From: Candidatus Aegiribacteria sp.
Lineage (GTDB): Bacteria; Fermentibacterota; Fermentibacteria; Fermentibacterales; JCC-6
Assembly: GCA_046498225.1 (NCBI GenBank)
Contig: JAWOBF010000019.1
Coordinates: forward strand, 1 to 61,280
Direction of reading: 5' to 3'
DNA length: 61,280 nucleotides
The notes beneath the pieces were generated by a model, which made no database searches, was not told where the DNA came from, and saw nothing but the letters and a program-made list of their open reading frames with translations. This document shows, piece by piece, positions 13,856 to 20,658 of this stretch. Within the stretch, counting starts at the first letter, position 1. Each line of letters opens with the position of its first letter. A program made the translations under genes and the position numbers.

Positions 13856-14725
13856 TCAAGTCCGGCCCCGCTGGATGAGGATGCCGGTTATGACCATTAT
13901 CAGGCCTGTAACAGTGTAGAGCCCGATGGTTTCCCCCACCGCTGTGCCTATGAATACCAGCGAGAGGAAAGGGGTCAGGTATATATAGCTTCCAACCTCG
14001 GAGGTGGTCTCCGCCAGCTGAAGCGCCCTCAGCCATACCACGAAGGTTATTCCCATCTCGAACATTCCGATGTACGCGGCTCCCAGCAGCCCTTTTACTC
14101 CGGCTCCCGCCGTTTCGGCCAGGTCCCCCCTCACCAGTCCGAGAAGAAGCAGGAACAGGAGACCGAAGCTGAAGGAGCGCGCGAGGTCGACGATCGGGTC
14201 CCCCCTGGAGCGGACGTTCAGTATCCAGTAGAGCGCCCATATCACAGTACTGAGCAGAGCGAGGCCGATGGCAGCCACGGACAGCTGTCCCCCCACCGGG
14301 TTTCCGCCGAGGGCCAGTATTCCTATGCCGCAGAAGCTCACCAGGGAGGAGACCGCCATTCTCATGTTGATCCGCTGCCCCAGCAGCGGGGCGGACAGAA
14401 GCATCAGCATGACAGGCCACAGGTAGTTGATTACCATGGCTATCTGGGCGGGGAGCCTGTCGTAGGCCTCCAGCAGGACCAGATAATAGATGAAAGGATT
14501 GAGGGCTCCCCTGGCGGCGGACCTGAGTAGTTCGGGGCCGGAAAGGGGCGGAAGCAGACGCCGCCGGCCGCGGAACATTACCGCCGCCCACAGGGCCATA
14601 GTGGATACAGCCGACGAAAGCAGGACCAGCTGGTAGGGACTCAGCCAGCGAAGTGTTATCTTGAACGCGGAAGCCGCAGTGGACCAGAACAGCACCGCTG
14701 TAAGCGCCAGCAACCTGGGTTTCAT
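13856..14725 (-). CDS. DMT/EamA family transporter
   Basis: About 10 TM helices, INYLWP and YIYLTP repeats. Confidence 0.9.
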   Translation of the reverse strand: MKPRLLALTAVLFWSTAASAFKITLRWLSPYQLVLLSSAVSTMALWAAVMFRGRRRLLPPLSGPELLRSAARGALNPFIYYLVLLEAYDRLPAQIAMVINYLWPVMLMLLSAPLLGQRINMRMAVSSLVSFCGIGILALGGNPVGGQLSVAAIGLALLSTVIWALYWILNVRSRGDPIVDLARSFSFGLLFLLLLGLVRGDLAETAGAGVKGLLGAAYIGMFEMGITFVVWLRALQLAETTSEVGSYIYLTPFLSLVFIGTAVGETIGLYTVTGLIMVITGILIQRGRT

Positions 14726-14877: not shown

Positions 14878-14925
14878 GCTCAATATATGGACACCTGATC
14901 ATAATGCTCACACCAGATATAGTGT
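14878..14925 (+). promoter_or_regulatory. Tandem NrdR boxes
   Basis: GCTCAATATATGGACA (14878) and ACACCAGATATAGTGT (14910) resemble acaCwAtATaTwGtgt; starts 32 bp apart, upstream of nrdD. Confidence 0.8.
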
Positions 14926-14933
14926 TCAGTCTC

Positions 14934-14961
14934 TTGACACGGTACCGGCAGAGAATATTAT
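14934..14961 (+). promoter_or_regulatory. Sigma70-type promoter for nrdD operon
   Basis: TTGACA-N16-TATTAT directly downstream of NrdR boxes. Confidence 0.65.
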
Positions 14962-15065: not shown

Positions 15066-17186
15066 ATGAACTGGCTGATCCGCAAGCGTGACGGCAGTAT
15101 AGTCACTTTCAGCAAGCGCAAGATAGAGAAGGCGGTGGAGCGGACACTCAGGGCCTCTTCCACGGAGGCCGACTCCAGGGAGATAACCGACCAGGTGGAG
15201 GCGGCCCTCTACATGAACTTCTTCAAGGCCGGCTCCATTCCCACGGTTGAGCATATCAAGGACTTCATCGAGGAAACATTCGTTCTCCGCAAGCTGACAT
15301 CAGCCGCCAGAGCGTTCATCCTGTACCGGGAGAAGAAGAACGAGGCAAGGGACGTGGACCATCTCCTCAGCGGCATGGAGGGGATAGTCGTTGATTACCT
15401 GGGCAAGGCGGACTGGAGGGTCAAGGAAAACTCCAACATGAACTACTCCCTTCAGGGGCTCAATTTCTACCTCTCCTCCTCCATAACCAGGAAATACTGG
15501 CTCAGCAGGATATACACTCCCCGCATAAGGGAGCTTCAGGAGAACGGCGACTTTCACATACACGACCTGGGAATACTGGGCCCCTACTGCGTCGGATGGG
15601 ACCTGATGACCCTTCTCAGAGAGGGTTTCAGGGGGGCCAGGGGAAAGACGGAGTCCTCCCCCCCGGTCCATCTCAGGACCGCCCTGGGACAGATAGTGAA
15701 CTTCTTCTATACGCTGCAGGGAGAGGCGGCGGGAGCCCAGGCCTTTTCCAGCTTCGACACCCTGCTGGCGCCGTTCATAAGGTACGACGGCCTGGAGTAC
15801 CCGCAGGTAAGGCAGGCTTTCCAGGAGTTCCTTTTCAATGTGAACATTCCCACCAGGGTGGGCTTCCAGGCTCCCTTCACCAACATAACCATGGACCTCA
15901 AGCCCTCCGCCTCCCTCAGGGAGGAGAGGGTGATAATCGGCGGAAGGCCCAGGGACCAGGTCTACGGTGACTTCCAGCTCGAGATGAACATGATAAACAG
16001 GGCCTTCGCCGAGCTGATGATGGAGGGGGATTCGAAGGGCAGGATATTCACATTTCCCATTCCCACCTACAACCTGACCAAGGATTTCGAATGGGACAAT
16101 GACGACCTGCAGCCCATCTGGGAGATGACGGGAAAGTACGGGGTGCCCTACTTCAGCAATTTCGTAAATTCAGACATGGACCCGGATGACGCCAGGAGCA
16201 TGTGCTGCAGGCTTCGCCTGGACAACAGGGAGCTTCGCAACCGGGGAGGAGGGCTTTTCGGCTCAAACCCCCTTACCGGCTCCATAGGGGTGGTTACGGT
16301 GAACCTCCCGAGGATTGGATACACCTCCGCGGGAGAGGCTGAGTTCTTCGACAGGCTCTCCTACGTCATGGAGGCTGCCAGGGAGTCGCTGGAGCTGAAG
16401 CGGGACCTGATAGAAAAGCTGACCGAGCAGGGGCTCTATCCCTACACCAGCCACTACCTGCGAAGCATCAAGTCCCAGCTGGGAAAGTACTGGGACAACC
16501 ACTTCTCCACCATCGGCCTCATCGGCATGAACGAGTGCGCGGTGAACTTCCTCGGGGAGAGCATAGCCACCGAGGAGGGACGCGCGTGGTCGCTCAAGGT
16601 GCTTGCATTCATGCGGGAAAAGCTGACGGAATTCCAGACGGAGACTGGAAATCTCTACAATCTGGAAGCCTCCCCGGCGGAGGGGGCCTCCTACAGCCTG
16701 GCCCGCAAGGACAAGGGCCAGTTTCCTGACGCCTATGCCATGGGCAGTTCAAACCCTTACTACACGAATTCGGTCCATCTTCCGGTCACCGAGCAGAGGG
16801 ACATATTCGGCCTGCTCGAGCATCAGGACCCGCTTCAGACCATGTTCACCGGGGGAACCGTGGTGCACGTCTTCATAGGGGAGGCCATAACCGACTGGCG
16901 CATGGTGAGGAAACTGGCTCGCTCGGTGGTCTCGCGGTACCATCTGCCCTATTTCAGCTTCACCCCCACCTTCTCCATATGTCCGGTCCACGGTTACATC
17001 GCTGGAGAACATTTCCTCTGCCCCTACCCGCACACACGGGAGGAGCTTGCCAAGTACGGGGAGATAGTCAACGCGGATGAGTTCCAGCGGATACCGGAAG
17101 GAAGCTATTCAAAGGTCGAGGAGCCCGTTCACGAAGGGCAGCGGGATCTGTTCCTCAAGATAGGAAAGGTGTCTACCAATGCCTGA
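15066..17186 (+). CDS. nrdD: Class III anaerobic ribonucleotide reductase, catalytic barrel with ATP-cone; lacks glycyl-radical loop
   Basis: ATP-cone IRKRDG; HIHDL, YCVGW, TFPIPT, SMCCRL, GSIGVVT, EASPAEG, YYTNS, TPTFSICPVH; no RxxGY motif. Confidence 0.95.
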   Translation: MNWLIRKRDGSIVTFSKRKIEKAVERTLRASSTEADSREITDQVEAALYMNFFKAGSIPTVEHIKDFIEETFVLRKLTSAARAFILYREKKNEARDVDHLLSGMEGIVVDYLGKADWRVKENSNMNYSLQGLNFYLSSSITRKYWLSRIYTPRIRELQENGDFHIHDLGILGPYCVGWDLMTLLREGFRGARGKTESSPPVHLRTALGQIVNFFYTLQGEAAGAQAFSSFDTLLAPFIRYDGLEYPQVRQAFQEFLFNVNIPTRVGFQAPFTNITMDLKPSASLREERVIIGGRPRDQVYGDFQLEMNMINRAFAELMMEGDSKGRIFTFPIPTYNLTKDFEWDNDDLQPIWEMTGKYGVPYFSNFVNSDMDPDDARSMCCRLRLDNRELRNRGGGLFGSNPLTGSIGVVTVNLPRIGYTSAGEAEFFDRLSYVMEAARESLELKRDLIEKLTEQGLYPYTSHYLRSIKSQLGKYWDNHFSTIGLIGMNECAVNFLGESIATEEGRAWSLKVLAFMREKLTEFQTETGNLYNLEASPAEGASYSLARKDKGQFPDAYAMGSSNPYYTNSVHLPVTEQRDIFGLLEHQDPLQTMFTGGTVVHVFIGEAITDWRMVRKLARSVVSRYHLPYFSFTPTFSICPVHGYIAGEHFLCPYPHTREELAKYGEIVNADEFQRIPEGSYSKVEEPVHEGQRDLFLKIGKVSTNA

Positions 17187-17349
17187 AGTCAAGCAGGATG
17201 ACCGGATAAGAGCTATCAAGACTGAGGTCTACTCCAGGATAGTGGGTTATTACAGACCGGTCCAGAGCTGGAACAAGGGGAAGCGTGAGGAATTTTCCCA
17301 GCGGGAGTACGTTACGCTTGAAGATGACGGGAAAAAGGCCGGTAGTTGA
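17179..17349 (+). CDS. Stand-alone NrdD glycyl-radical domain (56 aa)
   Basis: Manual translation MPEVKQDDRIRAIKTEVYSRIVGYYRPVQSWNKGKREEFSQREYVTLEDDGKKAGS; RBS GGAAAGG at 17163; overlaps nrdD end and nrdG TTG start. Confidence 0.9.
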   Translation: MPEVKQDDRIRAIKTEVYSRIVGYYRPVQSWNKGKREEFSQREYVTLEDDGKKAGS

Positions 17350-18041
17350 TCCGCTCCCTCACCGGCACCAGTCTCATAGAGTATCCAGGGAAGATATGCT
17401 CCATCCTTTTCCTGTCCGGATGCAACCTCCACTGCCCTTTCTGCCATAACCCGGAACTGGTGCGGCCGGACATGCTGGACGAAGAGTGCGGTCTTTCCCA
17501 TGAGCAGGCGATAAGCGAACTGAAGGCCAGAGAAGGTTTCATAGAGGCTGTCACCATCACCGGAGGCGAACCTCTCCTCTACGACGGAATAGAGGAGCTG
17601 ACAGGCCAGATAAAGCGGGAGACGTCACTGTCCGTCAAACTGGACACGAACGGTACGCTGCCCGACAGGCTGAACGGAATACTCCACCATGTGGATTACG
17701 TGGCGATGGACCTGAAGAGTTCTCCACGCGGGTATCTCAGGGCAACGGGTGAAAAAGCCGTGTTCGGCGATATCAGGGAATCCATCGGAATAATAAGATC
17801 ACTGCCCGCATACGAGTTCAGGACCACCATGGTCCCGGGTATCGTGGACCGTGACGGCGTGATGGAGATACTGAGCGAGACGGGCAGAGTGAACAGGTAC
17901 ATCCTACAGACCTTCCATTCCGGCAAGACCCTTTCCCCTGAACTCACCGGCCTTCCCTCCTATTCCAGGGATTACCTGGAGGAAACGGCGGAAGCGATAC
18001 GGAAAAATGGACTCGCGGCCGAGGTAAGCATCAGGCCCTGA
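17346..18041 (+). CDS. nrdG: Anaerobic RNR activating radical SAM enzyme
   Basis: GCNLHCPFCHN, ITGGEP, KLDTNG, YVAMDLK, YEFRTT; operon position. Confidence 0.93.
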   Translation: MIRSLTGTSLIEYPGKICSILFLSGCNLHCPFCHNPELVRPDMLDEECGLSHEQAISELKAREGFIEAVTITGGEPLLYDGIEELTGQIKRETSLSVKLDTNGTLPDRLNGILHHVDYVAMDLKSSPRGYLRATGEKAVFGDIRESIGIIRSLPAYEFRTTMVPGIVDRDGVMEILSETGRVNRYILQTFHSGKTLSPELTGLPSYSRDYLEETAEAIRKNGLAAEVSIRP

Positions 18042-18068
18042 CCGGCCTTTCGAACGGCCGGTTTTTTT
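18041..18068 (+). terminator. Rho-independent terminator after nrdG
   Basis: ACCGGCC-TTTCGAAC-GGCCGGT followed by T-run. Confidence 0.85.
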
Positions 18069-18090
18069 GCATATTCACTAACGACATTCA

Positions 18091-20658
18091 ATGATACACG
18101 GAACGGCACCGATGACGAAGGATGGTGACGGATTGCCCAGACGGATGGTACTCGCCCTTACACTGCTTGTCATGCTGGCCTCCGCGGTATTCTGCGCCGT
18201 CTACCTGTTCAGGGAATACACGAAGGTCTACAGAATAACCAACACCGGTGACATGTGGAGTTTCGTGAGAATAGACGAGGAGAGTTCATTTCCCCCGTTC
18301 GTGGAGATCGACCCTGATGATTTTCCGCACCCTCCCTATCCGCAGAGTGGCGACCTGCTGGTAGCGGTGAACGGCCGGCCCGCCACTTGGGAGAACTACC
18401 TGAGGACATTCTCCATGGATACCCCTCCCGGACGGACCATCGAGATAATGTTCAGGCAGGGGGGAGAACTCTACACCACCGATATAGTGACCCGGTCCAT
18501 TCCCGGCCCGCTGAAGCTCCAGATATGGACCATGTTCCTTCTCAGGACGCTTATAGCAATGGGGCTCCTTCTGACCGGAGTCTGGGGGCTTGTCCGACGA
18601 TCGGCTTCGGCGGCGGTCAGGACCCTGTCCCTGTTCTGCGCGACCCTCGCCGTGCACATGGCCCTCGCGAGTACCATAGTCGCCTACCTTTACGCGTCAT
18701 TCCAGCTTCCCGATATGATGATCACCCTGTTCGCCGTACTGGGCCTGTCATCGTCCGCTTTCTGGCTCAAGCTGCACCTGCTGTTTCCACAGACGAACTC
18801 ACTCTACAGGAGCAACAGGATCCTGGCCAACGTCCTCATCTTCCTGCCGGTCATCGTCGGAGGCCTGTACGCGATTCTCAGGTCGAGCTTACCTGATATG
18901 CTGACGGTGAGCGTATATCAGACCATCTACCTGACGGGCGGATTCGTACTGCTCATTCGAAACACTGCGGGCGCCGACAGCTTCATAGAGAGAAGGCAGA
19001 CCAGGCTTGTGCTGCTGGGGTCTTTCCCGGGCATCGCCCTGTTCATCCTTTACGGCTGGTTCATCTACACAGTCAATTACTTGCAGCTGCAGCTTCCCAT
19101 TCAGACGCACATGCTGATAGTCAACATCGTGTTCCTCTTCCTCCTTCCCATTCCCGTATCCATCATATACGCCTTCAGGAAGTACAGGCTCCTGGAGGTT
19201 GAGGGAAGGCTGAGAAGGGGAACCCGTTTCCTGGCGGTTAACCTTCTCCTGGTTCTGGTCTTCTTCGGACTGCTCTACCTCTTCGGTGAGTTCCTCCTGA
19301 ACGAGGTGGGAATAAGCAGCCGGACCCCCACCCTGGTCCTGGGACTCATCCTCGCGCTGGCTTTCATGCCCACCCAGAGAAAGCTCAGATCCAGGGTGGA
19401 GGACTATTTCTACCCGGAGAAGAGGAGACTGAGAGAACTTCTGAGAGACTTCCTGGCGTCGAGCATGGTCCGGGCCGAGGGAAGCTCATTCTGGAACAAT
19501 CTGCAGAAGAAACTGGCAGACGGGCTGGCGGCGGAAAGGATATATCCCCTGCTCATGGCCGAGGACACGGGCCGGTTCACCCTTCAGGACAGCGAACCGA
19601 CGCCCTTCAGCGCTTCTGACCCGCTGGTGGAGAGGCTTCTCAGCAGGGAGGTCCCGGTACTGCTCGACGAAGCTGTGGAAAGCGGCAGAGTATCGCTGAC
19701 CGGGGAGCAGCAGAGATGGTTCGAGGAGCGGAAATGCGCCGTGATCCTGCCCCTGACAGCTGGTTCCGGTCTGGTGGGTTTTCTGGCGATAAGCAGCAAG
19801 ACCAACGGGGAGGATTTCAGCGCCGGGGAACTCGAGCTTCTTAGCAGCTTCTCCGCCCAGATAGCCCTGGTGGCGGAGAACATCCAGCTCCTTCAGGAGA
19901 GGATAGAGAAGCAGAAGCTGCAGGAGCAGCTGTCTGTAGCCAGAAGGATCCAGCAGGGACTTCTTCCGGGAGAGATACCCCGAATACCGGGGCTGGAGAT
20001 CAGGGCCCTGATACGCTTCTGTCTCGACGTTGCGGGGGACTATTACGATGTGATGCCTCTGAAGGATGGCAGGGTCACCATAGCCGTGGCCGACGTGGCA
20101 GGAAAGGGCGTGGGTCCCGCCCTGCTCATGGCGAACCTTCAGGCGTCCCTCAGGACCACGAGGGATATGGGCATATCCCTGGCAGAATCCGCCGCAAGGA
20201 TGAACTCCCTCATCTACGACAACACGCCCTCGGAACTCTTCATCACTTTCTTCATGGCCTGTGTGGACCCTCAGACGGGCAGGGTCAGCTACGTGAACGC
20301 AGGTCATGACCCTCCACTGCTGGTGAGGAGTAGCGGAGAATCGGAGAGACTCACCGAGGGTGGTCTGCTTTTCGGAGTGGCCAGAGAGGCCAGGTACACG
20401 GAGGGGCTGGTGTCCTTCGACCCGGGTGATACCATCCTGATGTATACCGATGGCGTCAGCGAAGCCATGAACCCCCGGGGGGAAGAATTCGGTGACCGCA
20501 GGATAGAGGCCCTTGTGCGGGAGAACCTGGACATCGGCCCGGAAAGGCTCCTGGAGACGATAGACAGGAGTGTGGAGCGGTTCCACGGCTCATCGAGCTA
20601 CTCAGATGATTTCACTCTGCTGGCGGTGAGACGGAGTTCAGCCCGCGGCAGCAGCTAG
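18091..20658 (+). CDS. Membrane-bound SpoIIE/RsbU-type PP2C phosphatase (PDZ-like, multi-TM, GAF)
   Basis: GDLLVAVNG PDZ-like segment; many TMs; GAF with FSAGELELL; AGDYYD, ADVAGKG, NAGH, YTDGVSEA, DDFT. Confidence 0.92.
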   Translation: MIHGTAPMTKDGDGLPRRMVLALTLLVMLASAVFCAVYLFREYTKVYRITNTGDMWSFVRIDEESSFPPFVEIDPDDFPHPPYPQSGDLLVAVNGRPATWENYLRTFSMDTPPGRTIEIMFRQGGELYTTDIVTRSIPGPLKLQIWTMFLLRTLIAMGLLLTGVWGLVRRSASAAVRTLSLFCATLAVHMALASTIVAYLYASFQLPDMMITLFAVLGLSSSAFWLKLHLLFPQTNSLYRSNRILANVLIFLPVIVGGLYAILRSSLPDMLTVSVYQTIYLTGGFVLLIRNTAGADSFIERRQTRLVLLGSFPGIALFILYGWFIYTVNYLQLQLPIQTHMLIVNIVFLFLLPIPVSIIYAFRKYRLLEVEGRLRRGTRFLAVNLLLVLVFFGLLYLFGEFLLNEVGISSRTPTLVLGLILALAFMPTQRKLRSRVEDYFYPEKRRLRELLRDFLASSMVRAEGSSFWNNLQKKLADGLAAERIYPLLMAEDTGRFTLQDSEPTPFSASDPLVERLLSREVPVLLDEAVESGRVSLTGEQQRWFEERKCAVILPLTAGSGLVGFLAISSKTNGEDFSAGELELLSSFSAQIALVAENIQLLQERIEKQKLQEQLSVARRIQQGLLPGEIPRIPGLEIRALIRFCLDVAGDYYDVMPLKDGRVTIAVADVAGKGVGPALLMANLQASLRTTRDMGISLAESAARMNSLIYDNTPSELFITFFMACVDPQTGRVSYVNAGHDPPLLVRSSGESERLTEGGLLFGVAREARYTEGLVSFDPGDTILMYTDGVSEAMNPRGEEFGDRRIEALVRENLDIGPERLLETIDRSVERFHGSSSYSDDFTLLAVRRSSARGSS

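Follow-up and report, generated by a model that had tools for sequence, protein, structure and literature searches.

Gene organization of the locus

The window analyzed here is the whole 61,280-nt stretch of contig JAWOBF010000019.1, from Candidatus Aegiribacteria sp. (assembly GCA_046498225.1). It contains a locus for a class III (anaerobic, glycyl-radical) ribonucleotide reductase (RNR), an O2-sensitive enzyme that produces the building blocks of DNA, in which the reductase gene nrdD is present as two consecutive open reading frames (ORFs), followed by the activase gene nrdG. The coding features, taken from the ORF list and from family profiles (TIGR02495 for nrdG), and the signals that lie between them are:

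15066-17186, + strand: nrdD large chain, 706 aa, ATG start
17091-17108, + strand: conserved tail motif IPEGSY, residues 676-681 of the large chain
17163-17169, + strand: Shine-Dalgarno (SD)-like GGAAAGG for the small ORF, within the nrdD coding sequence and 9 nt 5' of the ATG
17179-17349, + strand: small chain with the glycyl-radical loop SRIVGYY (Gly23), 56 aa, ATG start
17346-18041, + strand: nrdG activase, 231 aa, TTG start

At the first junction, the ATG of the small ORF lies 5 nt ahead of the nrdD TGA, and the two ORFs overlap by 8 nt (ATGCCTGA). At the second, the TGA of the small ORF is shared with the TTG start of nrdG in the sequence TTGA. A TAG codon occupies 17161-17163 in the small-ORF frame, and any frameshift joining the two frames would have to occur in the interval 17164-17183. 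A preliminary description of this DNA had placed the radical motif on a +1-frame ORF that has its own ribosome-binding site and ATG and overlaps both neighbors, and had confined any frameshift to about 20 nt; our reading of the junctions agrees with both statements.

The NrdD family sequence is divided between two chains

The Pfam family NRDD (PF13597, 562 positions, cut-off 26.2 bits) matches the large protein over model positions 1-531 (E = 8e-172, 573 bits) and the small protein over positions 533-560 (E = 2.2e-09, 37 bits). Similarly, NF006126 (684 positions) covers positions 5-654 on the large protein (E = 1.8e-290, 965 bits, cut-off 548) and positions 650-682 on the small one. When aligned to the solved NrdD of T. 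maritima (4COI), large-chain residues 155-661 correspond to residues 103-617, and small-chain residues 14-44 (KTEVYSRIVGYYRPV...) to residues 612-643 (KVDEYMRIVGYLVPV..., which includes RIVGY). Since both family models and the structure alignments divide at the junction, the break in the family sequence falls after the putative metal site and before the radical loop. At this point there are about 57 extra residues, namely a tail of 45-50 aa on the large chain and 13 aa at the N-terminus of the small chain. PF13597 was the only Pfam family reported for the 56-aa protein, with PF01228 absent at E values up to 1. The activase is of the NrdG2 type (TIGR02495, E = 3.5e-45, 153.7 bits versus a cut-off of 131.15).

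The large chain consists of an ATP-cone, a catalytic barrel, a C-x2-H...C-x3-H site and a 50-aa tail. It contains no R..GY glycyl-radical motif and stops 50 residues past the CPYPH of the putative metal site (residues 652-656), as had been proposed earlier from the sequence. Coverage by NRDD and NF006126 ends at that site. C380, C381, C639, H642, C652 and H656 are invariant among 31 homologues. The first two stand in the context SMCCRLRLD and are candidates for the finger-loop cysteine(s) that would receive the radical. The other four are arranged as C-x2-H...C-x3-H, not as two CxxC pairs, and form a putative metal site.

The preliminary description had called the remainder of the large chain an unrecognisable tail of about 50 aa. 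The length was right, but the tail is recognisable in relatives: LPEGSY or GAY is conserved across the large chains of split type, and the segment is under constraint (see below). MAFFT placed LPE------GSYR of the tail opposite PEIYSRIVGYFR of fused relatives. The (L/I)PEGSY motif may be what is left of a duplicated radical loop that has degenerated, or the resemblance may be a coincidence.

The split is conserved across the phylum

To rule on an indel at the junction, which the preliminary description had flagged as needing read support, we used contigs assembled from sequencing runs (Logan) rather than reads, so that rare variants could escape. One contig (X1, depth 31), which may derive from the source sample, covers 16622-17508, and another from a different study (X2) covers 16837-17250. 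Both cross the junction with 0 gaps. A third (X3) stops 16 nt beyond the nrdD stop and is excluded from the bridging contigs.

The peptide is present in 36 of 41 relatives, with 35 strong matches (G000-G034) and one weak match in an unrelated genome. The phylum is named Fermentibacterota in our sources, and the closest homologues are listed under Candidatus Fermentibacteria, Aegiribacteria, Sabulitectum and Fermentibacter. By profile search, the body (model positions 1 to ∼531-543) and the tip (533-560) of NRDD give separate matches in all 70 phylum genomes, which represent 14 genera in 3 families. We read 39 junctions directly (35 + 4), and every one is split; the remaining 31 genomes were judged split from open frames of 50-173 aa around the tip. 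The division is shared by these genomes, and the alternative envisaged at the outset, close relatives with a continuous nrdD, was not encountered among them.

The geometry of the junction is variable. Relative to the nrdD stop, the ATG of the small ORF is offset by -5 in 29 of the 39 junctions, by -1 in 5, and by +3, +4, +5, +6 and +7 in one each (for the first 35, the counts are 29 at -5, 4 at -1 and one each at +5 and +7). Of these 35, 30 use relative frame +1 and 5 use +2. All three frames occur among the 39, frame 0 being used in G042 and G044, where the ATG comes after an in-frame stop (TGA-CGA-ATG and TAA-ATG). Junctions of the form ATGA and TGA-g-ATG are present in two more phylum genomes. 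Each within-phylum junction that was read has an ATG with an SD-like site, and in 35 of 35 this is GGAAAGG, GGGAGGA or GGAAGGA ∼8-12 nt 5' of the ATG. TAA immediately precedes the ATG, in the small frame, in 3 of the 35 genomes, and the TTG or GTG of nrdG overlaps the small-ORF stop in 32. Another 24 species-level genomes in the genus have the same junction as the window.

Two sets of apparent fusions were rejected. In four GC-rich relatives, open frames of 603-752 aa suggested fused genes; these are alternative frames open by chance, and the real nrdD lies in another frame. For G042 and G044, open frames of equal length for body and tip had suggested the same, and stop codons separate the two. 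Open-frame length can mislead here, with an alternative frame open for 600-750 codons in GC-rich relatives.

Both chains are under purifying selection

We calculated pairwise ratios of nonsynonymous to synonymous substitution rates (dN/dS; Nei-Gojobori) within the genus, dropping saturated pairs and those with dS ≤0.05:

Small ORF: dN/dS 0.09-0.10, 25 sequences, 150 pairs
Large-chain tail after CPYPH: dN/dS 0.14-0.16, 17 sequences of equal length, 91 pairs
Large-chain core: dN/dS 0.035-0.04, 25 sequences, 115 pairs

Purifying selection acts on both pieces. In addition, the ATG of the small ORF is kept in 39 of 39 junctions, while the nrdD codons that overlie it are variable (N, D or H at the first position and A, V or G at the second). 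This pattern indicates selection on the start codon itself.

Split NrdD is recurrent beyond the phylum

Matches to the peptide at E up to 1e-3 include 312 proteins of 30-98 aa, belonging to several sequence types. Among representatives at 50% identity there are 2633 matches; the best 150 are all ≤348 aa in length, and 143 of them are ≤112 aa. On the side of the large chain, 117 of the 120 best homologues (61-100% identity, query included) lack R..GY in their last 80 residues, a count that includes one 541-aa fragment. Only three of the 120 are fused, with lengths of 713-714 aa. The chains lacking the motif include those of the cultured Thermodesulfatator indicus DSM 15286 and T. autotrophicus.

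We then examined the genomic loci of the best 80 of 596 relatives found with the peptide profile. Of these 80, 40 were scored as split and 33 as fused; for the remaining 7, no large chain was found in the 3 kb upstream. Split-scored loci occur in Treponema lecithinolyticum ATCC 700332, Treponema sp. OMZ 840, Victivallis, Desulfuromonas, Caldimicrobium and Elusimicrobiota. Detailed reading of the junction succeeded at 32 of the 40, of which 3 gave odd offsets (L069, L080 and L114). Outside the phylum, some loci have intergenic spacers of 11-136 nt with an AGGAGG of their own, ranging from T. autotrophicus (TAA, 11 nt, ATG) to Elusimicrobiota (107-136 nt). In L114, from a Moranbacteria metagenome-assembled genome (MAG), the radical-loop frame also has a CPKC metal-site motif and the barrel is in another frame; this locus may be split at a different point, or may involve a frameshift.

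A tree was computed from 69 large chains (38 split, 31 fused), the chain of the window included, using alignment columns up to residue 660; 16 of 84 loci were excluded because they were incompletely covered or gave no hit. The tree requires at least 6 changes between split and fused states, and well-supported branches alone force at least 5 under LG+G4 and at least 4 under a mixture model. The chain of the window falls in an all-split clade of 12 rows (support 100), nested in a clade of 19 rows with one fused member. As the sample was picked by likeness to the peptide, these numbers do not give frequencies in nature. Judged by these sequence comparisons, the split is phylum-wide here and recurrent in many other phyla. 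The earlier suspicion that it might not be unique was right and, given 117 of 120 homologues and 40 of the best 80 of 596 loci, understated.

Radical tips also occur away from nrdD. In a Treponema MAG (L109:2236-2745), a 170-aa ORF carries an NrdD radical tip (residues 25-56) fused to a glutaredoxin domain, with an NrdG-like radical S-adenosylmethionine gene downstream and a GH2 glycosidase gene, not nrdD, upstream. The same fusion may be present in representatives of 154-179 aa. A stand-alone tip ORF (L061:3001-3117) is flanked on both sides by rhodanese-domain genes, and the 3 kb upstream of it contain no nrdD. Tip ORFs also adjoin a C5 DNA methylase gene in a Methanophagales MAG (L098:2797-3141) and lie near a phage-type integrase gene in an Elusimicrobium MAG (L115:3001-3171), and these two may reside on mobile elements.

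A predicted complex of the two chains

Folded alone, the large chain gave a mean predicted local distance difference test score (pLDDT) of 77.9, with low confidence in the finger loop and in residues 634-706. Modeled together, the large and small chains reached a median ipSAE of 0.85 (runs of 0.86, 0.85 and 0.84), compared to 0.00 for the best of three controls. Partner pLDDT did not fall below 72, and the runs had 77% or more of their contacts in common. Of 80 solved complexes, 58 reach the pass mark, as do 2 of 110 mismatched pairs; these counts serve only as a rough guide because custom alignments were used here. The preliminary description had suggested a prediction of both chains with NrdG; the model of the two chains passes its controls.

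In the model, the tightest pairs join large-chain residues 635-639 and 650-652 to small-chain residues 12-18. Further predicted contacts involve barrel residues 326-332, 537-546, 559-568, 574-583 and 599-605 and tail residues 660-686, with 680-684 and 686 of the tail within the modeled interface.

A proposed two-chain class III RNR and the alternatives

We propose that the locus encodes an obligate two-chain class III RNR in a three-cistron operon, nrdD-large/nrdD-small/nrdG, and put the probability of this reading at roughly 85%. The 706-aa chain would supply the ATP-cone, a barrel of ten strands that holds the CC finger loop, and a site of Cys2His2 type, and the 56-aa chain only a β-hairpin with the radical Gly23. 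The small chain would be made from its own ATG and SD site, its translation coupled to termination of nrdD, and translation of nrdG would in turn be coupled to the small ORF. Once made, the small chain would dock non-covalently at the site held by the C-terminal glycyl-radical domain in one-chain NrdD, its strand of residues 12-18 pairing with strands 635-639 and 650-652 and the tail helices of the large chain, and NrdG would take the hydrogen from Gly23. The anatomy of the genes, their conservation, the selection on them and the varying geometry of the junction are direct observations; that the chains assemble, that the radical is installed on the small chain and that the enzyme is active is inferred. 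Comparative evidence, purifying selection, indel-free contigs and the complex model all strongly favor the two-chain enzyme, in line with the preliminary description, over a broken or frameshifted gene.

Several points weigh against this proposal. The evidence is drawn from sequences and a predicted structure. Contigs from RNA libraries (X5) span 16610-17123 alone and stop short of the small ORF. The finger-loop cysteines 380 and 381 are absent from the list of confident contacts, and the passing score of the complex may reflect only likeness to, or memory of, one-chain NrdD, because the two chains are halves of a solved family. In the frame-0 genomes G042 and G044, readthrough of the stop might in principle yield a fused chain. 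Finally, the genome encodes a second RNR large subunit outside the window (PF02867, E = 4.2e-128, 825-aa open frame, G000:C7:39058-40479). The split enzyme is therefore not provably essential, and an argument from essentiality was discarded on this ground.

Of the other explanations, programmed ribosomal frameshifting (+1 here) would yield one chain with an insert of ∼57 residues before the radical loop. The 8-nt overlap with GGAAAGG upstream, and an overlap geometry that is constant within the genus, are what one might expect of such a site. Yet inspection of the sequence revealed no slippery site in this interval of 17164-17183, relatives use relative frames of +1, +2 and 0, and the ORFs overlap by 8 or 4 nt or are separated by 0-4 nt within the phylum and by 11-136 nt, with AGGAGG, elsewhere. 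Three relative frames, with overlaps or spacers at the junction, make frameshifting very unlikely, and the TAA directly ahead of the ATG in three genomes and the retention of that ATG over variable nrdD codons argue in the same direction. Of the hallmarks of frameshifting of the prfB/dnaX type, there is no conserved shift site and no constant frame, and an independent start is present.

Gene decay is just as improbable. In that case the large ORF would be a truncated, inactive remnant beside a working class I/II-type RNR, and the small ORF a leftover; the PF02867 subunit mentioned above could fill the working role. A remnant is hard to reconcile with a split kept in 70 of 70 phylum genomes, with dN/dS of 0.04-0.16 over core, tail and small ORF, with an invariant, putatively catalytic CC loop and an invariant C/H site, and with an nrdG that is intact and coupled. 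Least probable of all, with hardly any chance of being correct, is a spurious indel near 17170-17185. Although the genome assembly is in 151 contigs, contigs of two studies span the site without gaps and the same junction recurs across the genus, in 24 other genomes at species level.

A more speculative extension of the two-chain proposal concerns the role of the small protein. In glycyl-radical enzymes, the radical glycine is buried inside the barrel, and access of the activase to it is accordingly a long-standing question. Pyruvate formate-lyase, with GrcA, is to our knowledge the only case in which the response of the cell to O2 cleavage of the chain is known. The 56-aa chain could conceivably be a diffusible, exchangeable radical cartridge, the equivalent of GrcA for class III RNR except in being obligatory, a possibility we regard as rather doubtful. 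NrdG would then activate the small chain off the enzyme, with no tethered domain to be swung from the barrel, and after O2 cleavage at Gly23 a fresh copy would join the undamaged 706-aa body. The orphan or fused tips at rhodanese, glutaredoxin, integrase and methylase loci would be spare or specialized cartridges; they are compatible with this role and no proof of it. Nothing in this genome supports the hypothesis of a replaceable O2-labile part, put forward in the preliminary description, the small gene being single-copy and translationally coupled within the operon.

Flanking features

A consensus scan brackets the three genes between a promoter-like and a terminator-like element, with a candidate operator further upstream:

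14910-14925, + strand: candidate operator, NrdR-box-like palindrome ACACCAGATATAGTGT, 8 nt upstream of the promoter
14934-14961, + strand: sigma-70-like promoter TTGACA-16-TATTAT, ∼105 nt ahead of the nrdD ATG and in agreement with the consensus at 11 of 12 positions
18040-18073, + strand: terminator-like hairpin (18040-18063) after nrdG, with an 8-pair stem (6 G-C) followed by the T-run TTTTTGCATA

The operator call uses a 16-nt consensus that we take to be that of the NrdR box, and any regulatory function would follow from this likeness. The 16-mer is the single match in the window, with 2 mismatches; 0.21 matches are expected by chance, and 17 of 100 shuffled sequences contain at least one, so that the match appears only weakly above chance. 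An nrdR gene is present elsewhere in the genome (G000:C23:872-1312). The neighboring genes have no evident link to the RNR operon. Upstream, 13856-14725 (- strand) encodes an EamA-family transporter, and downstream, 18091-20658 (+ strand) encodes an 855-aa membrane protein with GAF and SpoIIE/PP2C phosphatase domains.

Significance and comparison with known systems

A radical loop carried on a separate protein of 56 residues would offer a natural system in which to study activation in trans, subunit exchange after exposure to O2 and the least that docking requires. The arrangement is available in culture, for instance in Thermodesulfatator autotrophicus. Annotation pipelines call the small ORF a 'hypothetical protein' or overlook it, and RNR surveys with a length filter of 400-1100 aa, as given in PMC9531940, would miss the small chain. 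We found no description of a split NrdD in full-text searches of the literature, a coverage that leaves aside subscription journals and supplements.

The closest known systems are the one-chain NrdD enzymes with their NrdG (T. maritima 4COI/4U3E, phage T4 1H78 and P. copri 8P23). Both pieces described here belong to the same family (PF13597, NF006126), and the order of ATP-cone, barrel, metal site and R-I-V-G-Y loop, with NrdG adjacent, is the same. Here, however, the putative metal site and the radical loop are on different chains, with ∼57 extra residues, and the metal-site motif reads C-x2-H...C-x3-H in place of the ..CEDGH..CPVCG.. of T. maritima.

Interruption of RNR genes has precedents. 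According to PMC3653736, nrdD is the RNR gene most often interrupted in phages, with 6 cases involving introns or homing endonucleases. Those are interruptions by mobile elements, resolved by splicing or by an unknown process, whereas the case here is a clean two-cistron split at the boundary of the radical domain. The class II RNR of Pseudomonas aeruginosa, NrdJa/NrdJb, is naturally split. As described in PMC9669993 and PMC4520616, its catalytic subunit is likewise encoded by two consecutive genes, with a C-terminal functional module on the second chain. It differs in class and cofactor, and NrdJb carries Zn-finger, IscU-like and Cys-pair modules rather than the radical site.

In the nature of its small chain, the system resembles GrcA (YfiD), presented in PMC12288474 and PMC8683613 as an autonomous glycyl-radical 'spare part' for pyruvate formate-lyase. 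Both are small free-standing proteins that bear only a glycyl-radical loop. GrcA, however, backs up a full-length enzyme that has a radical domain of its own. The only NrdD of the genome analyzed here lacks that domain, and its small chain would therefore be obligatory, unlike GrcA; it is also derived from NrdD rather than from pyruvate formate-lyase, is without PF01228 and is encoded inside the operon of the enzyme that it would complete.

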